A stretch of 64,000 bases of DNA from Escherichia coli (GTDB taxonomy: Bacteria > Pseudomonadota > Gammaproteobacteria > Enterobacterales > Enterobacteriaceae): assembly GCF_016903815.1 (NCBI RefSeq), contig NZ_CP069973.1; one strand, given 5' to 3'. The stretch's first letter is position 1, and every line of letters begins with the position of its first letter. The position numbers were made by a program, and so were the translations under genes. The notes under the pieces are model-generated. The model did not search any database, had not been told where the DNA came from, and worked only from the letters and a program-made list of their open reading frames with translations. Positions 4,846 through 36,522 of this stretch are shown piece by piece.

Positions 4846-5376
4846 TCAGGCTCCGGATGACTTTCGTTTTTTCTCCAGCTCCTGGCGCTTTTTTTCCAGG
4901 AGATGCTCCTGCATGGCTTTCAGATATGCATTTTCTGCGCGAAGATAACGCAGCTCATTCTTCATCTCTTCCGGCGTCATGTTTGCCTCGTTTTCATGGG
5001 TATCATCAGAACGGGTCATGCATTTCTCCTTCCTGCGCCTGATAAAGGCCTCATTACCAGATTTGCGGTAGCCTTTTATCCAGTTTTTAACCGTGTTGTG
5101 GCTGGGAATGTTAAACCGGGCAGCTACCCGGGGTAGAGACTCAGAATGCCCGAGAGCATAAAGAACCACGCAAAGTTTATCTTCAGGAGAATAGCTACGC
5201 CTGTGTCTGCAATCCAGTGCCCGAGGACCGTGAAGAAGAAAAAGATTAATCCAGTGTGAGAGGCTGGTGTGAGAAAGTTGAAAGAGTTTTGCCGTAGAAA
5301 TGATGCCTGCATGACCAGCCAGGTAATGATTTACAGCGGCAAGTTTTACTTCAAATGAATGTTTCATAAACTGCAC
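4846..5376 (-). CDS. IS3-family transposase orfA (HTH DNA-binding part, leucine-zipper-like C-terminus)
   Basis: ORF inside the IS; 3' end carries A AAA AAC slippery heptamer (about 4868..4875) typical of IS3-family frameshifting. Confidence 0.8.
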   Translation of the reverse strand: MQFMKHSFEVKLAAVNHYLAGHAGIISTAKLFQLSHTSLSHWINLFLLHGPRALDCRHRRSYSPEDKLCVVLYALGHSESLPRVAARFNIPSHNTVKNWIKGYRKSGNEAFIRRRKEKCMTRSDDTHENEANMTPEEMKNELRYLRAENAYLKAMQEHLLEKKRQELEKKRKSSGA

Positions 5377-5449
5377 CTTCAGATGTCAGATTATGTCCAA
5401 CATTTGGGGTGCAGTTCAGCCAGCGTCGCATCCGGCATTTTTTTCACCA

Positions 5450-5482
5450 ACGCAAAAAGGCCATCCTGACGGATGGCCTTTC
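5450..5482 (-). terminator. rrn operon terminator
   Basis: Minus-strand hairpin AAGGCCATCC-GTCA-GGATGGCCTT followed by T-rich tract, immediately after the 5S gene. Confidence 0.6.
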
Positions 5483-5492
5483 GCTTAATTTG

Positions 5493-5612
5493 ATGCCTGG
5501 CAGTTCCCTACTCTCGCATGGGGAGACCCCACACTACCATCGGCGCTACGGCGTTTCACTTCTGAGTTCGGCATGGGGTCAGGTGGGACCACCGCGCTAA
5601 GGCCGCCAGGCA
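5493..5612 (-). rRNA. rrfG: 5S ribosomal RNA
   Basis: 120-nt reverse-complement match to the enterobacterial 5S rRNA sequence; operon identity (rrnG) inferred from kgtP/clpB synteny. Confidence 0.95.
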
Positions 5613-5704
5613 AATTCTGTTTCATCAGACCGCTTCTGCGTTCTGATTTAATCTGTATCAGGCTGAAAATCTTCTCTCATCCGCCAAAACATCTTCGGCG
5701 TTGT

Positions 5705-8609
<2,905 letters not shown>

Positions 8610-27969: not shown

Positions 27970-30192
27970 TTGGCTGTTCAATTCGCTTATCCGTGGAACG
28001 TCCCACGGTCGGCAATCTCCAGCCCATACCTTACTTATGAGCAACAGCATCGCCGCGACCGTATGTTCGCGGCTTTGCTGCATGCAAAAAAGGTGCTTTC
28101 TCTCCAGCCCGACTGCGTGCGGTTAGATGTTTATCGCACTGCTGCGGTGCTGGAGCAAAATCAGGGTAGTCAACGAGCCAATGCATTTTTAATCAGCTTC
28201 TGCAAAAAGGCATTGCCGCGTCTTGAACTGGTCGCAAAAAAATACGAATGCGCTGGTATCAACAGCAAGGTATCAACCGCTGTTTTTGGAAGTCATTTTG
28301 ATACTCAGCAAATGCAATATCTGTCGTCACGCATGGTTAATATGGTCGCCCGATATAACCGTCTCCCGGACATGTCGCGCGCTGATGTTGACCTGTTGGC
28401 CGCTGATATTGCTAATTTCATTCGTGGTGAACTTGCCAACATTAATGACCACGGATTCGGCGAGCTTAAAACGCTGTACACCTGGTATATTCGTGCTGGC
28501 TTTATTTCCCTCCAATTCAACGTTATCCCACCACATTGGGAGCGGGTTGAAAAAAAATATGTCGGTGCGGATGAAATCGCACCGGCTATCGCCAAAATGT
28601 TTAACGATGGGTGGTGGCGCGGTCGTTTGCGCCGTGTAGCAGCTACGTGGCGCGAACACCTGCAAATTGCAGTCGGCAACGTCAGTAAGAAAAAAAACAC
28701 TTACGCGAGTAAAAACTGCGTGACTGACTGGCGTGAACAAAAGCGCCGCACTCGTGAATTTCTCAAAGGTCTGGATCTCGAAGACGAAGACGGCAACCGT
28801 ATCAGCCTAATTGAAAAATATGATGGCTCAGTTGCTAACCCTGCGATTCGCCGCTGTGAGCTCATGACCCGCATTCGTGGGTTTGAAAACATCTGTAATG
28901 AGCTCGGTTATGTCGGTGAGTTTTACACTCTAACCGCGCCGTCAAAATATCACGCCACGACTAAAGCCGGTTACCGTAACAGCAAATGGAGCGGTGCCAG
29001 CCCGGCTGACACGCAAAACTATCTAACCGGTATCTGGGCGCGTATCCGTGCCAAACTACATCGGGAAGATGTCCGTATTTTCGGTATTCGTGTCGCCGAG
29101 CCCCATCACGACGGCACTCCACACTGGCACATGCTGATGTTCATGCTGCCGGAAGATGTTGAATATGTTCGCTCCATCGTCCGTAAATACGCATGGAAAG
29201 AAGACCGCCACGAACTGAAAAGCGATAAATCCAAAAAAGCACGTTTCCACGCGGAGTCCATTGACCCGGAGAAAGGCAGCGCAACCGGCTATGTTGCTAA
29301 ATACATTTCAAAAAATATCGACGGTTATGCTCTCGATGGTGAAACCGATGATGAAAGCGGTGAGCTGCTGAAAGAGACAGCCCCCGCCGTTTCAGCATGG
29401 GCTGCGCGCTGGCACATCCGTCAGTTTCAGTTTATTGGTGGTGCGCCGGTGACGGTTTACCGTGAGTTGCGTCGCCTCGCTGATACCGAAACCGCGCACG
29501 GTCTGAGCGTTGAGTTTGCCGCCGTCCATGATGCCGCCGACGCTGGTGACTGGGCTGGTTATGTTAATGCTCAGGGTGGGCCGTTTGTCCGTCGCGATGA
29601 TTTACAGGTGCGCACACTGTATGAACCGCGTACCGAGCTTAATCAGTACGGTGAGGAAACGGTATGTATTAAGGGGGTCTACGATTCCTCCATAGGTGCA
29701 GGAAGCCCGATTTTAACCCGGCTCACTCAGTGGAAGATTGTTCCGAAGCGTGCTGTTGATTTGGCCGTTGACCTTCAGGACGGCAAAGCCGTCCCTCGGA
29801 GTTCTGTCAATAACTGTACGGGAAGCGAAAGCGATCCACCGATACTGGATTTAACAAAACCACTGAGTCGGCGTGAAAGACGAGAATTGACCAACCGACT
29901 CAGGAAGCAAAAGCCAGCAGCACGGCGAAAATTCATCCACGGAACGGATGAGCAAAACGCAGCTATAGCTAAAACTATCGATGAGATACATCTGACAACC
30001 GGCATTAATATCAGCCGGGGCGAAGCCCTGCACCTGATGGCCGGTGGTAAAAGTTGTTTTGATGGTAAATGGCTACGCGGAACGGCCAAAGGAGAAATAT
30101 TTTCCGCAGCACCATCGCATGAAGCTAAAGCTCGGAAAATCCTTAATCGTGTTGCGGCGATGGCTGAAGCATCAAAACCAATACATGAGTAA
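27970..30192 (+). CDS. replication initiation endonuclease (P2 gpA-like rolling-circle Rep)
   Basis: 740-aa product with HxH metal motif (HWHMLMF) and active-site Tyr context (YVAKYISK). Confidence 0.9.
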   Translation: MAVQFAYPWNVPRSAISSPYLTYEQQHRRDRMFAALLHAKKVLSLQPDCVRLDVYRTAAVLEQNQGSQRANAFLISFCKKALPRLELVAKKYECAGINSKVSTAVFGSHFDTQQMQYLSSRMVNMVARYNRLPDMSRADVDLLAADIANFIRGELANINDHGFGELKTLYTWYIRAGFISLQFNVIPPHWERVEKKYVGADEIAPAIAKMFNDGWWRGRLRRVAATWREHLQIAVGNVSKKKNTYASKNCVTDWREQKRRTREFLKGLDLEDEDGNRISLIEKYDGSVANPAIRRCELMTRIRGFENICNELGYVGEFYTLTAPSKYHATTKAGYRNSKWSGASPADTQNYLTGIWARIRAKLHREDVRIFGIRVAEPHHDGTPHWHMLMFMLPEDVEYVRSIVRKYAWKEDRHELKSDKSKKARFHAESIDPEKGSATGYVAKYISKNIDGYALDGETDDESGELLKETAPAVSAWAARWHIRQFQFIGGAPVTVYRELRRLADTETAHGLSVEFAAVHDAADAGDWAGYVNAQGGPFVRRDDLQVRTLYEPRTELNQYGEETVCIKGVYDSSIGAGSPILTRLTQWKIVPKRAVDLAVDLQDGKAVPRSSVNNCTGSESDPPILDLTKPLSRRERRELTNRLRKQKPAARRKFIHGTDEQNAAIAKTIDEIHLTTGINISRGEALHLMAGGKSCFDGKWLRGTAKGEIFSAAPSHEAKARKILNRVAAMAEASKPIHE

Positions 30193-30305: not shown

Positions 30306-30488
30306 ATGGTTGGCGAACATTTCAGCCGAACGCAGCAAAAGTGGGCTTGTGTGCAATTTATTGCCGAGGTATCTCTGATTGCAAACTGCAAGCCATCAGA
30401 CTTAAAGCTCGCGCTCACTCTCATTGCAGACCTAGCAAACAGCGAAAATAACGAAACCGAAGATGATAATTTTTATAAGGCTGATTAG
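30306..30488 (+). CDS. small protein, candidate Tum-like antirepressor module
   Basis: 60-aa ORF directly downstream of the LexA box; function inferred from position only. Confidence 0.45.
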   Translation: MVGEHFSRTQQKWACVQFIAEVSLIANCKPSDLKLALTLIADLANSENNETEDDNFYKAD

Positions 30489-30491
30489 ATT

Positions 30492-30722
30492 ATGAGAATC
30501 AATATCACGTTGGATAAAGAGCAAAAATTAGGGCAACAGATCATTGATGCTTTTCAAAATGAAATAACACATCGAGTACAATGCGTTTTTCCTGCAACAA
30601 AAGTTAACGTTAAGAAAGGGTCAATGACTGGTGTAGAGGCTATCGGATTCGATAAAGAGGCGGACAGAGAAACATTAGGCAGCATATTACAAGAGATTTG
30701 GGAAGACGATAGCTGGCGTTAA
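30492..30722 (+). CDS. DinI-family protein
   Basis: 76-aa product with DinI-like C-terminus (…LGSILQEIWEDDSWR). Confidence 0.75.
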   Translation: MRINITLDKEQKLGQQIIDAFQNEITHRVQCVFPATKVNVKKGSMTGVEAIGFDKEADRETLGSILQEIWEDDSWR

Positions 30723-30761
30723 ACATAATAACCGTGCTGGCGCAAAAACTAGCTTTTTGCG

Positions 30762-30795
30762 TCGGCGGGGTTGAGTAACGAGCCCACGAGGCTTA
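30762..30795 (+). repeat. direct repeat copy 1 (GGCGGGGTTGAGTAACGAGCCCACGAGGC)
   Basis: About 80 percent identical to copy 2 at 31165..31198; follows a hairpin. Confidence 0.5.
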
Positions 30796-30921
30796 AGTCC
30801 TGCCTTTCAAAATTTCTCAATGTGCTATTGATGACACGCCCATGATTAATGAGGCATGACCTGAGATGGTTTTATAGTGGCGTTTTGACGGCACTGATTA
30901 AAATTCATTGAGGGTGATAAT

Positions 30922-31131
30922 ATGCATCGACTACCAGGTGAAATACCGCAACACAAAACTAAAAGCATCAAACTGATGGCCATCGTTCATCGTTTGCAGC
31001 AGATAATGGTCAATGAGAATTTGACACCCGCAGAGCTGGTCGGGTGTGCCGAAATAGTCAGGGATAATTACGGCAAGCTGGATAGCATCAGCAGGTCGAA
31101 ACAATACGCACCACCACCACGTCGACGATAG
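30922..31131 (+). CDS. hypothetical small protein (69 aa)
   Basis: Good SD (GAGGGTGA) 6 nt upstream of ATG; flanked by the two direct repeats. Confidence 0.4.
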   Translation: MHRLPGEIPQHKTKSIKLMAIVHRLQQIMVNENLTPAELVGCAEIVRDNYGKLDSISRSKQYAPPPRRR

Positions 31132-31205: not shown

Positions 31206-32147
31206 TTAATTTATTTTTAATGAATGGTAATCTCGTGAGTTGACCGAAGATTTGAGATAACTGCAATCATTAACCGACAGTATTGCCGCTAATAGGCGAC
31301 ATACCAGTGCCTGCATTTGCAGCAATATATCGTTACCATATTGACTGTTGTTAACACTTGAGAAACCAAGCGGTTGACCAAAAAAAATAGCCTCATGAAA
31401 ATTATCATTGCGGATGCCAGAAATGTTTTTTTTACCTGACACCCATGTGGGGATTGATAACCCATAAATTTTGCACATCCACTTTAATCGCTTGTAATGA
31501 TTTGGCGGTTTTTTATCAGGAGCCTTGTCATGCTCAGCCCACGACAAAGCAAAGCACCCATCAAGTGCCATGTAAAGGTACTGGAATTTTTCAAAAGAAA
31601 GGTATTGTGGGTTTTGAGATAAGAATAGTGCATGCACCACTGCCGCAATTCTTTTGGGGGAGTGCGCATCCTTATGTTTGCCATTTATATAATTAAGAGC
31701 CAGTTCTATGACTTCTTTTTCAGAGCATCCAACGAGAATAAAGTCGGTTAACTTAGTGGGCTTGATAGTGGTTGCATCTAAAAAACCAGCGTCAGTGGTT
31801 GTCAATCTTATTCCCTTGAAAAAAGAAAGGCACCACACAATAAAGTTGAGAGTTTCTAACGAGGATGTATTTTTTAATTTTAGTGTGTGCGTTTTGGGCA
31901 TACTGAATACTCGGTGACTATAAGGCATTGTGGATATGCCACCATTAAGGTTATATACATCTTGGTTTCCAGGGTATATCCAACCTTTCACAACGTTTTT
32001 ATCATTATTAACACGCTCCACTTTCTCATTGAGACCAGGTAAAGTAAGCAAAGAAAATTGTTCAGTCTCAATGTTAACTTCTACTGGATAGTATCCAAAC
32101 TCCGACATAATCTCATTGGGTTGCTGTTCGTCAACTTCACCTTGCAT
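31206..32147 (-). CDS. accessory protein (313 aa) with Rx4H motif; candidate HEPN-like abortive-infection protein
   Basis: A+T-rich ORF in the region between replication gene A and cos; motif GIRNDNFHEA (R-x4-H); no other recognised domain. Confidence 0.65.
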   Translation of the reverse strand: MQGEVDEQQPNEIMSEFGYYPVEVNIETEQFSLLTLPGLNEKVERVNNDKNVVKGWIYPGNQDVYNLNGGISTMPYSHRVFSMPKTHTLKLKNTSSLETLNFIVWCLSFFKGIRLTTTDAGFLDATTIKPTKLTDFILVGCSEKEVIELALNYINGKHKDAHSPKRIAAVVHALFLSQNPQYLSFEKFQYLYMALDGCFALSWAEHDKAPDKKPPNHYKRLKWMCKIYGLSIPTWVSGKKNISGIRNDNFHEAIFFGQPLGFSSVNNSQYGNDILLQMQALVCRLLAAILSVNDCSYLKSSVNSRDYHSLKIN

Positions 32148-32384: not shown

Positions 32385-32403
32385 GGCGTGGCGGGGAAAG
32401 CAT
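32385..32403. other. candidate cos site (cohesive end)
   Basis: GGCGTGGCGGGGAAAGCAT closely resembles my recollection of the P2 cohesive end (GGCGAGGCGGGGAAAGCAC); embedded in a GC-rich non-coding stretch near Q. Confidence 0.55.
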
Positions 32404-32622
32404 TGCGCGCCAGCAGTGATGCGTAATAATAAAAATTATCCTCTGAGCGCGTCGTGATGGCGCTGTCGTGGTCGCTGCTGGTTCGTTGGTGGTCGGGTGT
32501 GTTCGTGCGCGTGAGACGCATCTGATGCGTGATGGTGGTGTGCATGGAAAAGCCACCAGGAGCAGCGGCTTTACAGGAGTGGCAGGATTCAAACTGCTAA
32601 TTATGTTTCTACTATGATTAAA

Positions 32623-33627
32623 CTAATTTACATGTATGTAGAGTTCACCGTCGCCAGACCAATCGGGACACTCTAAAACAAGCCCAAACTGCTTGAATAT
32701 TTCATCAATGATTATTGTTATCTCCCGAAAATCACCAAAACCTGTAATGTGCTGGTCATTAAACTTCCCATAAAGATTCTGAAAAGCAATGCCTAATTCT
32801 GATAATTGATATCTTATCTTTGAGTTGGATAGTGTAAGGGATAGCTTTGGATCGTATTCTTTAATATTGATGTTTAGAGAATGGACATAACCCATCGCAT
32901 AAGCATAAGAGTTGATGATTAGCCTGATACGTTTTTTTACTTCGAGATACATGTCATTCAGAGAAATATTACCGTACTTATAACCCCAGATGAGTTTTTC
33001 AATCTCGTCAGATACTTCATTTACAACAGTGTCAAGATTCTCTAAAAATAAATCGATAGTTTCTTGAGGGGCAGACCCCGAAGACATGTAATTAGCGAGA
33101 TATTCAGACCATGCACGCGTGGCTGAGATAAGAAGCGCGCTACCATACTCGTTGACTGTAAAGTTTTGGGCTAAGCATGTTAGTAAGTTTTTTTCATGTA
33201 CGTGCACTAATTCATGGTGAATGCGATGGATGACTGCGAGGTATCCTTCTTCTTTCAGTTTTAAGAAGCTACCATCATTGAAAAGCTCAACAAAAAAATC
33301 AATCGATAGCACAAGGGTATATTCTTCACATAGCCCATCATTGCCAATTTTTGTTACTAACTGCCCGACGGCTGCGCCCTGTTTGCTATTGGTAAATGAA
33401 CTAGGGGATTTGTGTTGGTAAGAGGATGTTACCTTTTGAAGAGCTTCACTGAAGTTATAGGAAACAATCACGCATTTTAATTTGGAGATATCAAGATTGA
33501 GATTTTTTGTTAAAGCTCGGATAGCTTCTAGTGTGAAATTACCGATATTATTTGCTTCTTGCTCAGTAGCGAAACCTTCGAGGGTTATTTTAAAATCAGT
33601 TTCCAAAATATTAATCTCCGCGCCCAT
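32623..33627 (-). CDS. accessory protein (334 aa) with HExxH motif; candidate zincin-like metallopeptidase
   Basis: A+T-rich ORF between cos and portal gene Q; motif HRIHHELVHVHE with Glu about 23 residues downstream. Confidence 0.65.
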   Translation of the reverse strand: MGAEINILETDFKITLEGFATEQEANNIGNFTLEAIRALTKNLNLDISKLKCVIVSYNFSEALQKVTSSYQHKSPSSFTNSKQGAAVGQLVTKIGNDGLCEEYTLVLSIDFFVELFNDGSFLKLKEEGYLAVIHRIHHELVHVHEKNLLTCLAQNFTVNEYGSALLISATRAWSEYLANYMSSGSAPQETIDLFLENLDTVVNEVSDEIEKLIWGYKYGNISLNDMYLEVKKRIRLIINSYAYAMGYVHSLNINIKEYDPKLSLTLSNSKIRYQLSELGIAFQNLYGKFNDQHITGFGDFREITIIIDEIFKQFGLVLECPDWSGDGELYIHVN

Positions 33628-33704
33628 TGTTTTGATATTCGATGCACTATAGCTTTCGCAGATTGCATCTTCAATAATGAGCGCAGAGATTGTGGCGGCC
33701 TAAG

Positions 33705-34751
33705 TTATTCTGGGTTGTCGAGGGTGTACTCTTTGAATCTGATGACCTCCATGCCGAGCCAGTCATTTACCTCCCTGAACCGGTCCTGTAGCGGCGACAG
33801 CTCGTTGCGCACAAATACCTTTGCCACCTTCTCAACATCACCGAGTGAACCGATATTCTCGGGCTTGCCGCCCATGAGCTGGAACGGTACGCGGTGCGCG
33901 TCCATCAGATCGGCGGCACTGGCCTTCTTGATGTTGAAAAAGTCATCCTTTGTGGCGACCTCGCTCAGTGGCACGATTTTGATGCCGTCCGGTTTTCCGC
34001 CGGGAGCGTAGAAAAACAGGTTCTTAAAGTTGCCGAGCCCTTTTGAGTTGCGCATCGCCTCGCGCAGCGATTCGACGTCGGTCGCGCTCTGCGCCGGGTC
34101 AGTCACATACATGATGTAACCCGCGTGCGCGCCGTTCTGATAATACTTGCGGCGGAACAGCGTCGCGGATTCATTCAGCCAGGCGGAATTTAGCGCGCTG
34201 AGATATTCGGGCAGGCCGTAAATCTCCTGATTAATGTCGGGCTCCAGCAGGTGAAACACGGTATCAGGCGCGAACTCGTGCGGCTGGGTGAAGTTTTCCA
34301 CAAACCAGAAAATCGAATCGTCGACTCCGCGTCGGGTGTATTTGGCTGGCGAGGCCAGCAGTTTGATTAACTGGCCGGTGACGCTGTGGCGCTGCTCAAG
34401 AAAGGCGTTACCGAACACCAGATAATCGAGCGCAAAGCGGCTGAAATCCTGACGGGATAACAACGGGTGCGGAATGTAGGTGCTCGCGAGCACGTTACGC
34501 TTAACATAAATTGGCGAGCTGTGATGCACGGCAGAGCGCAGGCTCTTTGCCAGCCCTGAGAAGCTGACCGGCGGCTCGTACCATTTGCCGTTACTGATGC
34601 ACTCGACGTAATCCAGAATGTCGCGCTTATCGAGCACCGGCACCGGCTCGCCGAAGGTGAACGCTGTCGTTTTTGGCGGTGCGCTGGCGGTCAGTTGTTG
34701 TGGTTTGCTGGCCTTTTGTGCGTTGGCTTTACGGGATTTTTGTTTACCCAT
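33705..34751 (-). CDS. portal protein (P2 gpQ-like)
   Basis: 348-aa product, size and position match P2 Q; adjacent to terminase. Confidence 0.9.
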   Translation of the reverse strand: MGKQKSRKANAQKASKPQQLTASAPPKTTAFTFGEPVPVLDKRDILDYVECISNGKWYEPPVSFSGLAKSLRSAVHHSSPIYVKRNVLASTYIPHPLLSRQDFSRFALDYLVFGNAFLEQRHSVTGQLIKLLASPAKYTRRGVDDSIFWFVENFTQPHEFAPDTVFHLLEPDINQEIYGLPEYLSALNSAWLNESATLFRRKYYQNGAHAGYIMYVTDPAQSATDVESLREAMRNSKGLGNFKNLFFYAPGGKPDGIKIVPLSEVATKDDFFNIKKASAADLMDAHRVPFQLMGGKPENIGSLGDVEKVAKVFVRNELSPLQDRFREVNDWLGMEVIRFKEYTLDNPE

Positions 34752-34752
34752 T

Positions 34753-36522
34753 TTAGTTGAACTCCAGAATAGATTTAGGCTGCATGCCGCTACCGGCAGA
34801 AAGCGGTTCGTTTAACAGGGCGTGCATGGTCGCCCATGCGATATCGGCGTGGCTGGCTTCCTCGGTGCGGCTGGCCTCATAGGTGGCGCTGCGCCCGCTG
34901 CTGGTCATGGTTTTGCGGATGGACATAAACGACTGCGTGACGTCGGTTGCTCCGGCGTCGTACTCCAGACAGCCACGGCGAATGGTGTCTTTCGCCTTGA
35001 GTACCATTGCGGTTTTCATTTCAGGTGTGTAACGGATGCCGCGTGCCGCCGGGTAAAATGAGCGCACCAGCTGGAACACGCCGAGACCGAGGCCGGTTGC
35101 GTCAATGCCGATGTATTCGACGTTGTATTTCTCGGTCAGCTTGCGGATGCCCTCTGCCTGTGCTGCAAAATCCATGCCCTTCCACTGGTGGCGCTCCAGC
35201 ATGCGGAACTTGCCACCAGAGACCACCGGCGGCGCGAGCACGACGCACCCGGCACTGTCGCCGGTGTGTGACGGGTCGTAGCCAATCCAGACAGGACGAG
35301 AGCCGAACGGATGGTCGGCGAACGGGGCAAAGTCCTCCCATTCCTCCATTACATCGACCATGCAGCGCTGCAGCTCCTCGAACGGGAATACCGACGCTTT
35401 ATCGTCGACAAACTCGCACATAAACAGGTTCTTAAAGTCCTCATCACTGTTTTCGCGTTTGAGCTGGTCGAGGTCGAACAGGGTGCAGCCACCCGCAAGG
35501 GCGTCCTCAATGGTGACAATCTGCCGCCACTGGCCATCGTCGCAGAGCTGGCCACCGGCGAGCGCGCTGTGACTGATGTCGATTTCGATGCGGTCGGCAA
35601 TCCGGCTGCGCCCCTTGTTGAACAGCTCGCCAGACCAGAAGGGGTAAGCGCCGTGCGCCAGCGTGGAAGGTGTCGAAAAATAGGTCGAGCGCAGGTGCTT
35701 TTGCGAGGCCATGCCCGAGGCGACTTTGCGCAGTTTCTGAAAATTCGGGATCCAGAATATTTCATCGACATACAGATCGCCGTTATGGCTCTGCGCGGTG
35801 TTGGAATTGGTACCGAGAAAAATCAGTTTTGCGCCGTTGTTACCGATGACAATCGGGTCGCCAGTCAGGTCAACGTCGACCAGTCGCGCAAACTGGATGA
35901 TGTATTCGCGGAACACGTAAGCCTGCGTTTTACTGGCTGATAAAAATATCTGGTTATGGCCGGTTTTGAGTGCGCGCAGCAGTGCCTCGCGGGAGAAATA
36001 GAATGTCGCGCCAATCTGGCGGGATTTGAGAATGTCACGAATACGGTGCTCCAGTCCTGCGCGGTACCACTGCAACTGGTACTCGAAAGACTGGTCGAAA
36101 AATAATTCCTCTAGTTTATCGATAGCCTCGTCGCTGAAAAAATTCTTTTTCGGCTTTTTGCGCTCCCCTTTGTTGCGGTTGGCGACGTTGGGGTTAAGGT
36201 CGGCTTCGTTGCCGGTCTGGCTGTAGCGGTTGACTCGCGCCAACCGTTCAATCTGCCGTCCGAGCAGGTCAATCTCTTTGAAATCACCCCCTGTCTTTTG
36301 CGGCTTGGCGATGAGCTGAATCAGCCTAGCCTCAAGGCTGCTTTCAACGCGGGAAATCGGCGCGATGCCGTCCCAGCCGTCACGCTGCTTCCAGCTCTGC
36401 ACGGTCGGGCGCTTGACCTGCAGCATTTCGGCAATCTGTGGCACGGAAAAACCCTGCCAGTAAAGCAGCGATGCCTGCCGTCGCGGGTCATGCAACAAGG
36501 TTGTATCGGTGGAAATGGTCAT
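34753..36522 (-). CDS. terminase large (ATPase) subunit (P2 gpP-like)
   Basis: 589-aa product; divergent from capsid operon. Confidence 0.9.
   Translation of the reverse strand: MTISTDTTLLHDPRRQASLLYWQGFSVPQIAEMLQVKRPTVQSWKQRDGWDGIAPISRVESSLEARLIQLIAKPQKTGGDFKEIDLLGRQIERLARVNRYSQTGNEADLNPNVANRNKGERKKPKKNFFSDEAIDKLEELFFDQSFEYQLQWYRAGLEHRIRDILKSRQIGATFYFSREALLRALKTGHNQIFLSASKTQAYVFREYIIQFARLVDVDLTGDPIVIGNNGAKLIFLGTNSNTAQSHNGDLYVDEIFWIPNFQKLRKVASGMASQKHLRSTYFSTPSTLAHGAYPFWSGELFNKGRSRIADRIEIDISHSALAGGQLCDDGQWRQIVTIEDALAGGCTLFDLDQLKRENSDEDFKNLFMCEFVDDKASVFPFEELQRCMVDVMEEWEDFAPFADHPFGSRPVWIGYDPSHTGDSAGCVVLAPPVVSGGKFRMLERHQWKGMDFAAQAEGIRKLTEKYNVEYIGIDATGLGLGVFQLVRSFYPAARGIRYTPEMKTAMVLKAKDTIRRGCLEYDAGATDVTQSFMSIRKTMTSSGRSATYEASRTEEASHADIAWATMHALLNEPLSAGSGMQPKSILEFN

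Follow-up and report, generated by a model that had tools for sequence, protein, structure and literature searches.

The 64-kb stretch of Escherichia coli DNA analysed here (contig NZ_CP069973.1; hereafter the window) carries a P2-like prophage in which a solitary gene, referred to below as the cargo gene, lies between the cos site and the portal gene Q and encodes a protein of 334 amino acids (aa). The protein is very probably a metalloenzyme of the gluzincin fold. It belongs to an unnamed, Pfam-less family that is distributed over at least eight bacterial phyla and represents a new family of a known kind, the gluzincins. In P2-like prophages the gene is a horizontally acquired, A+T-rich single-gene cassette, and it is a good candidate for a new single-gene anti-phage system, one among the many cargos of the hotspot in which it resides.

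The zinc-site motif and its conservation

The peptide HRIHHELVHVHE (residues 134-145, nucleotides 33193-33228) contains the HExxH signature, H138-E139-L-V-H142. Its conservation was assessed in two sets of sequences. The close set comprises 32 homologues with at least 42% identity from E. coli, Salmonella, Klebsiella, Serratia, Yersinia, Shewanella, Psychromonas and others, in which H137, H138, E139, H142, E145 and the block W173-S-E175-Y-x-A-N are invariant. When 1.84 billion cluster representatives were searched exhaustively, 130 clusters of the same length (~310-340 aa) were found, and 55 of these, with ~20-25% identity to the query, were aligned as the deep set. The only invariant columns of the deep set (55/55) are H138, E139, H142, E175 and G246, while D/E145 (53/55), W173 (51/55), Y176 (50/55) and A178 (53/55) are nearly so.

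A preliminary description of this DNA had pointed to a canonical HExxH motif. Such motifs often arise by chance, but here the invariance of its three residues in 32/32 close and 55/55 deep sequences indicates more than that. It had also named a glutamate about 23 residues downstream as a possible third ligand; this residue, E160, is retained in 15 of the 32 close homologues and in only 4 of the 55 deep ones, and had to be abandoned in this role. The third zinc ligand proposed from the alignments and the structural model is E175, located 33 residues after H142.

Predicted structure and relation to gluzincin families

The AlphaFold2 model, built on the 32-sequence alignment, has a mean predicted local distance difference test (pLDDT) score of 90.8 and a predicted template modelling (pTM) score of 0.90. 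It consists of an N-terminal mixed alpha/beta lobe, a helix bearing the HExxH motif (residues 126-148), a helix bearing E175 (residues 160-185) and a helical C-terminal lobe. Structure comparison of the model gave figures of 9.3-8.0 with M1 aminopeptidases, 8.3 with lugdulysin (M30), 7.8 with collagenases (M9), 7.7 with LTA4 hydrolase, 7.6 with Tricorn factor F3 and 6.4 with thermolysin (M4), at sequence identities of 7-13%. The features of gluzincins, namely a helix-borne HExxH motif, a conserved Glu on the following helix and a thermolysin-like two-lobe fold, are all present. The zincin-like character suspected earlier is thus upheld by a confident model that resembles gluzincins, together with the invariance of H138, E139, H142 and E175. 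The putative active site is assigned from the fold class, the placement of the helices and the invariance of these residues; we infer metal binding and peptidase activity.

The likeness to the M1, M4, M9 and M30 gluzincins (clan MA(E)) is at the level of the fold. Unlike these enzymes, the cargo protein lacks a secretion signal, a propeptide and extra domains, and no Pfam model of clan MA is significant for it or for the deep members. It differs from the M1 aminopeptidases in having neither a Pfam Peptidase_M1 match nor the GxMEN motif, and in spacing, M1 enzymes having HExxH-x18-E while 32 residues lie between H142 and E175 in the cargo protein. The distance from His to Glu is roughly 20 residues in both M1 and M4, compared with 33 here.

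Searches of Pfam, NCBIfam and PADLOC with the 334-aa protein returned no match, in Pfam not even at an E-value of 10, and its sole match in PHROGs is phrog_11743, which has no assigned function. PDB sequence searches with both profiles gave spurious helical or coiled-coil matches only. Pfam searches with the 55 deep members gave only sub-threshold hints of clan MA (Peptidase_Mx1, M64, M91, M13 and DUF4932), and a profile search of a collection of 5.8 billion proteins was swamped by close relatives and added nothing. The protein (37-38 kDa) is acidic (isoelectric point 5.0) and lacks both a signal peptide and any hydrophobic segment. It is therefore predicted to be cytoplasmic.

Position of the cassette in the prophage

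The cargo gene lies between the cos site and Q and is encoded, like Q and the terminase gene P, on the minus strand (Table 1). Q is its upstream co-oriented neighbour and the last conserved gene of the late P-Q operon, with the scaffold gene O coming after P in gene order; the immediate neighbours of the cargo gene are Q and cos. The cos 19-mer occurs once in the window, with two mismatches to that of P2, against a chance expectation of 0.02 matches per window. In the phage P2 genome (AF063097), cosL occupies positions 1-19, the terminator tQ positions 160-181 and the Q stop codon position 187, which leaves the slot empty; the P2-like prophage of E. coli EC6868 has no gene there either. The location, the orientation and the empty slot in P2 had all been described correctly.

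The same order, namely Q, ~80 bp, the cargo gene, ~220 bp and the cos 19-mer, was found in 18 out of 18 P2-like loci retrieved, which comprise phage vB_EcoM-613R3, Salmonella and Klebsiella prophages and IMG/VR contigs, and the side between cos and gene A varies from locus to locus. In two divergent P2-like contigs (L022 and L024), whose portals are 33-35% identical to Q, a 51-56% identical copy of the cargo gene directly follows the portal gene.

A hairpin downstream of the cargo gene aligns to the annotated tQ of P2 and is kept in 8 loci, so that the tQ equivalent is now found after the cargo gene and not directly after Q. It follows from this alignment that the point of insertion lies exactly between the stop codon of Q and the terminator of the P operon, which has been retained. 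No terminator-like site was found by the terminator scan between Q and the cargo gene; therefore late P_P transcripts should, as read from the sequence, proceed through P, Q and the cargo gene and end at tQ. The 77-bp spacer that separates the cargo open reading frame (ORF) from the stop codon of Q contains a sigma-70-like promoter candidate. Its -35 hexamer is invariant in 9/9 P2-like loci and its -10 hexamer is identical in 8/9, being TATAGA in L019; the spacer as a whole is 95% identical across the nine loci, a shallow sampling. The cargo gene is probably also transcribed from this candidate promoter of its own in lysogens.

The cassette has the foreign base composition and the presence/absence pattern among syntenic phages that are typical of morons: its G+C content is 37.6% against 56.0% for Q, in agreement with the A+T-richness relative to Q noted earlier, and the gene is absent from P2 and EC6868 and present in 25 of the 326 E. 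coli genomes with a match to this cos region. As regards a promoter and a terminator of its own, the former consists of candidate hexamers with 9/12 matches in a shallow sample, and the latter is the tQ of the phage itself.

The start of translation may be a TTG codon at residue 8 (position 33606), giving a 327-aa product, because more distant homologues begin at this position, with the sequence M-E-x-D. The TTG codon and the GGAG preceding it are invariant in nine loci, and residues 1-7 have pLDDT values below 50 in the AlphaFold2 model.

Table 1. Coordinates of the cargo gene, its sequence features and the surrounding genes in the window
Feature	Position	Strand	Details
Replication gene A	27970-30192		
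Small ORFs between gene A and the 313-aa ORF	30306-31131		three
313-aa ORF	31206-32147	minus	far side of cos from the cargo gene
cos cohesive end, P2-type 19-nt, GGCGTGGCGGGGAAAGCAT	32385-32403	+	boundary of the left-end slot
tQ equivalent, hairpin AAAGCCGCU-GCUCCU-GGUGGCUUU then UU	32549-32572	minus	terminator scan, RNA fold
Cargo gene	32623-33627	minus	334 aa (possibly 327 aa), ATG start, phrog_11743
Codons of W173-S-E175-Y-L-A-N179	33091-33111	minus	predicted helix 160-185; E175 at 33103-33105
Codons of HExxH, H138-E139-L-V-H142	33202-33216	minus	predicted helix 126-148
Alternative TTG start, residue 8	33604-33606	minus	conserved GGAG 9 nt upstream
Candidate sigma-70-like promoter, TTGAAG-17 nt-TATAGT	33646-33674	minus	consensus scan, 9/12 matches
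Portal gene Q	33705-34751	minus	phrog_68, E 3.7e-170; annotated gpQ in ON470592
Terminase gene P	34753-36522	minus	

Selection and sequence variation

The ratio of nonsynonymous to synonymous substitution rates (dN/dS) among the P2-borne copies of the cargo gene is 0.17-0.32, compared with 0.05-0.07 for Q, which indicates a real gene under purifying selection that is more relaxed than that on Q. Between this window and Salmonella loci such as L005, dS is 0.21 for the cargo gene and 0.43 for the adjacent Q. Judging by these values, and by the 51-56% identity of the cargo copies in L022 and L024 beside portals with 33-35%, the cassette seems to have been passed from one P2-like lineage to another at a later time than the lineages separated.

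In one Salmonella prophage (L007; GCA_048018085.1) Q is split into two tblastn pieces by an apparent frameshift and is not called as a gene, and the zincin gene is intact (coordinates 4876-5920 and 6001-7005). This hints that the cargo gene can outlive the viability of the phage itself. Two homopolymer runs on the minus strand, seven T (33290-33300) and eight A (33187-33194), bracket codons ~113-146, including HExxH. In an IMG/VR copy (L020:6001-7008) the runs carry a +1 shift and a -1 shift that offset each other, so that only the catalytic helix is out of frame. It was considered as a true pseudogene and rejected, the paired +1/-1 homopolymer shifts being most likely a sequencing artefact. 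Slipped-strand on/off switching at the two runs is a less likely explanation.

The hotspot and the earlier catalogue

The cos-proximal region between gpA and gpQ of P2-like phages is an anti-phage hotspot (Rousset et al. 2022; PMC9122126), and the cargo gene, a variable gene between gpA and gpQ next to cos, is located within it. The survey of this hotspot covered 18,150 loci with 1,650 gene arrangements and 169 curated systems (PMC9122126). The exact 334-aa sequence is System #76 in its Table S5B, listed as a single protein with 51 occurrences, no Pfam domain and no signal peptide or transmembrane segment (PMC9122126). It appears only in Table S5 and is absent from Table S2, which gives the systems that were cloned and tested (PMC9122126). 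The gene is thus already catalogued, but neither annotated nor tested. A 2026 preprint on the P2/P4 hotspots contains no mention of peptidases, and a literature search found no paper on the cargo family. The sub-slot occupied by the cargo gene, to the left of cos and upstream of tQ, has not previously been highlighted.

The locus is carried by 25 of 5,426 complete E. coli genomes. The Salmonella orthologue was found in ~2,000 index blocks of an assembly collection. Among phage sequences, a set of 50,697 phage records gave one match and IMG/VR gave 12 loci, all of them P2-like.

A G+C-rich non-coding stretch separates the cargo ORF from a 313-aa ORF on the other side of cos. This ORF encodes an ApeA-like HEPN protein of a solitary family with more than 398 clusters, in which the HEPN Rx4-6H motif (R246-x4-H251) is invariant. 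Comparison of its AlphaFold2 model (pLDDT 76.8) gave template modelling (TM) scores of 0.72-0.83 with many proteins that bear the label 'Apea-like HEPN domain-containing'. Searches of Pfam, NCBIfam and PADLOC with the 313-aa protein gave no match, and its PHROGs family, phrog_5937, has no assigned function. The prophage therefore has a solitary candidate defence gene on either side of cos, and the products of these two genes have no similarity to each other. A two-gene system composed of both was considered and rejected: the 313-aa ORF occurs only in three near-identical phages, while the zincin slot is kept in 18 loci.

The small ORFs between gene A and the 313-aa ORF encode a 60-aa protein annotated as 'UV induction of prophage' in ON470592, a 76-aa DinI-family protein (phrog_189, E 6e-30) and a 69-aa protein (phrog_11386) with no assigned function. 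DinI is a recurrent resident of the hotspot in Table S5A of Rousset et al. (PMC9122126).

Relatives outside P2-like prophages

The closer non-phage copies lie in variable islands. The Psychromonas copy has a type I HsdR, an Xre-MbcA antitoxin-like gene, an endonuclease and VspR nearby, and the Kosakonia copy, at a prophage edge, has a YafO toxin nearby. A resolvase and a HEPN-like gene are found near the Serratia fonticola copy, and NERD near the Shewanella copy. A metagenomic member adjoins a Wadjet system (MksB/E/F and JetD).

When 100,044 species genomes were scanned with a sub-alignment of the deep branches, 29 loci were retrieved, which belong to Geobacter, Nitrospinota, Acidobacteria, Bacillota, Bacillales, Actinomycetota, Betaproteobacteria, Chloroflexi and Campylobacterota. 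Three full-length members lie among restriction-modification (R-M) genes. In Herminiimonas (L049; hhalign probability 99.9%) the gene order is hsdM-hsdS-[member]-hsdR; in a member of the Ruminococcaceae (L053; 99.3%) it is a DrmD-like SNF2 helicase, a DNA methyltransferase, the member and a type III restriction endonuclease; and in a member of the Bacillota (L030; 100%) an IteS-like S8 peptidase and a CBASS-like cyclase with SLATT precede the member, which is followed by hsdM, hsdS and hsdR. An actinomycetal member (L041) has a SoFic neighbour (E 1.8e-110). In a metagenome-assembled genome (MAG) of Zoogloea (L044: 6543-7547 and 7544-8554), the start of the member overlaps by 4 bp with a DUF3644 gene, which matches PDC-S19, a candidate single-gene system in PADLOC (E 3e-121).

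According to Foldseek comparison with AFDB50, the whole fold (TM ~0.8) is shared by many uncharacterised proteins with lengths of 310-370 aa in various phyla, and the same fold makes up one half of ~700-aa 'DUF4238 domain-containing' proteins such as UniProt A6X728. A metagenomic relative is fused to DUF2971. The Zoogloea pair may be the unfused, two-gene counterpart of these DUF4238-zincin and DUF2971-zincin fusions. DUF4238, with a validated protein from E. coli TA007, is itself a single-gene defence of the P2 hotspot, acting against T7, and is System #50 in the table that lists the cargo protein (PMC9122126). It was tried as a homologue with the same fold and rejected, with an hhalign probability of 0.1% and no Pfam (PF14022) or PADLOC match for the cargo protein; because of this lack of sequence similarity it is regarded as a fusion partner and not a homologue.

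All-against-all BLAST of the neighbours revealed no conserved partner gene. Eight members from Arcobacter/Campylobacteraceae (L031-L037 and L051) adjoin an opposite-strand gene of ~283 aa in conserved chromosomal synteny, with no obvious defence island, and so depart from the pattern of defence contexts. In a Geobacter MAG (L027:4019-7969), genes for proteins of 1,202 and 112 aa lie directly upstream of the member and are co-oriented with it; neither product has an NCBIfam or PADLOC match, a tyrosine recombinase is encoded nearby, and the region is a candidate island. Zincins of DUF45/COG1451 may be associated with type I R-M systems, but a literature search on COG1451 and R-M association produced nothing usable.

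Comparison with known systems

The Lit protease of the e14 element (Peptidase_U49) and the cargo protein are both prophage-encoded, solitary, ~300-aa, cytoplasmic HExxH proteins with no antitoxin or partner, and the motifs are locally alike (ILHHEISHV in Lit, RIHHELVHV in the cargo protein). Lit is latent until the Gol peptide of T4 binds EF-Tu, and then cleaves EF-Tu at Gly59-Ile60 (PMC3014915). Homology of the two was rejected: hhalign against E. coli K-12 Lit gave a probability of 17% over 15 columns, covering the HExxH helix only. The cargo protein has no match to Pfam Peptidase_U49 or to the PADLOC Lit model, and the genomic slots differ, being e14 for Lit and the cos-Q interval of P2 for the cargo gene.

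The gene prrC lies in the type Ic R-M locus EcoprrI, whose genes are arranged as hsdM-hsdS-prrC-hsdR (PMC3014915), and the Herminiimonas member holds the same position. By analogy, this position points to a latent enzyme, with a suicide or guard function, that has settled in an R-M operon. The chemistry of PrrC, an anticodon nuclease made up of an ATPase and a HEPN-like RNase, differs from that of a protease fold, and the P2 cargo copy has no R-M partner.

The cargo gene resembles other single-gene cargos of the P2 hotspot (old, tin, DUF4238) in being cos-adjacent, solitary and A+T-rich; old and tin are found at the right end of P2, whereas the cargo gene lies across cos, at the left end, inside the P-Q operon. 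ImmA/IrrE (M78) and CapP are, like the cargo protein, small cytoplasmic HExxH proteases tied to mobile elements or immune operons, and one structural relative is labelled as ImmA/IrrE family by UniProt. In contrast to them, the cargo protein has no Pfam Peptidase_M78 match and no adjacent or conserved helix-turn-helix (HTH) or repressor gene, and compared with ImmA/IrrE it is twice as large and has a different C-terminal lobe. The 'Peptidase + TM' system tested by Rousset et al. (pFR104, from E. coli TA280) was also considered as belonging to the same family and was rejected, its peptidase being an unrelated M78-like protein of 160 aa.

Possible function

The reading with most support is that of a solitary, latent, cytoplasmic zinc endopeptidase employed in conflict between phages or between phage and host, and it is rather probable that the cargo gene serves phage conflict in some way. 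More specifically, the chances are about even that the protein is an autonomous, phage-triggered latent defence protease, similar to Lit by analogy and not by descent. Its role would be anti-phage defence or superinfection exclusion: the protease would remain latent and become active only once an infecting phage supplies the trigger or the substrate, whereupon it would cut an essential host or phage protein and thereby abort the infection. Because the protease has no partner, its activity would have to be gated by the substrate or by a phage-derived cofactor, for which Lit provides a precedent. The gene and its place, the fold class, the invariant triad, the lack of a partner, and the defence-type surroundings and fusions of relatives are observed; a defence phenotype, a trigger and a substrate are what we infer for this protein. 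For the family as a whole, the proposal, tentative and a little short of an even chance, is that these solitary gluzincins constitute a new widespread anti-phage module, which acts as a single-gene abortive-infection or exclusion protease in P2-like prophages and was repeatedly recruited to R-M, DUF3644/PDC-S19, DUF4238 and DUF2971 systems.

Several observations weigh against a role as an autonomous defence protease. The resemblance to Lit is by analogy only, as the hhalign result (17%, confined to the HExxH helix) makes clear. The P2 hotspot also holds partition systems and a cytolethal distending toxin (PMC9122126). Recognised defence genes occur within three genes of the member in ~5 of ~20 non-syntenic scan loci, most other scanned neighbours have no PADLOC match, and the eight Arcobacter/Campylobacteraceae loci lie in a housekeeping synteny (Usp, EamA, MoeA). 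A constitutive cytoplasmic protease without an inhibitor or partner needs gating, and the analysis revealed none. The place inside the late P-Q unit would equally fit a role in the phage's own lytic cycle.

The prrC-like position in hsdM-hsdS-X-hsdR leads to the alternative that some members guard R-M systems. The protein would then be an accessory or guard module working beside another immune system and not an autonomous effector. Such a module might be a PrrC-like second line after anti-restriction, a CapP/ImmA-like regulator or an enzyme that cleaves phage anti-defence proteins, and in P2 it would cooperate with host systems or neighbouring cargo. Members inside R-M operons, the translational coupling of a member to DUF3644/PDC-S19, the fusions to DUF2971 and to DUF4238, which defends on its own, and the ApeA-like HEPN gene across cos in the window are all consistent with this. 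However, each case has a different partner, no partner is conserved, and there is no adjacent HTH or repressor partner as in ImmA or CapP systems. In addition, the gene keeps its slot in the Salmonella and Klebsiella P2-like prophages even though the whole of the far side of cos varies, and the ApeA-like gene is confined to the three near-identical phages. A guard function for the cargo protein is considered unlikely, though it deserves more weight than the explanations that follow.

The presence of the gene inside the late P-Q unit, upstream of tQ and with no terminator after Q, would also suit a counter-defence or competition weapon used in P2-like lytic growth to degrade a protein of host immunity or of a competitor or satellite such as P4, and the linkage to the portal gene persists in the divergent L022 and L024. 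This is quite unlikely given that the wider family is chromosomal, occurring in R-M operons and defence islands of many phyla, that it was not found in virulent phages (one match among 50,697 phage records, and 12 loci in IMG/VR, all P2-like), that the conserved sigma-70-like candidate promoter suggests expression in the lysogen, and that late expression would be poorly timed for neutralising host immunity.

A cytoplasmic hydrolase of general function, peptidase or otherwise, that serves housekeeping or stress and is present as a mere passenger with no part in phage conflict, would explain the conserved synteny of the Arcobacter/Campylobacteraceae members with Usp, EamA and MoeA, the many scan loci with no recognisable defence neighbour and the non-defence cargo of the hotspot. 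Set against this are the patchy distribution, which looks like horizontal transfer, the precise and recurrent slot in a known defence hotspot, and the members located inside R-M operons or fused to a validated defence domain, so that this explanation is improbable. A virion, head-maturation or packaging accessory protein, as might be expected of a gene that adjoins and is co-oriented with the portal and terminase genes, is extremely improbable, since P2 itself and most P2-like phages lack the gene (25 of the 326 cos-matching E. coli genomes and 51 of the 18,150 hotspot loci are positive), and it also has a foreign G+C content and homologues in non-phage loci.

Significance

If the cargo gene does encode an anti-phage defence, an unannotated entry in the catalogue of the P2 hotspot would gain a name and a testable catalytic mechanism, and a family would be added to protease-based single-gene immunity. 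Lit, which is narrowly distributed, is to our knowledge the only single-gene immunity metalloprotease of this kind; the cargo-family protease would be the second after Lit, and unrelated to it. The pattern of recruitment would then imply a general proteolytic step of sensing or execution that is common to otherwise unrelated immune systems, and the recurrence in R-M operons and in fusions could help to explain DUF4238, DUF2971 and DUF3644, which are themselves functionally obscure. The slot to the left of cos means that the P2 hotspot extends across cos into the late transcription unit, which bears on the timing of cargo expression. Finally, the gene is common in Salmonella P2-like prophages, so that a phenotype could have consequences for phage typing or phage therapy in Salmonella.

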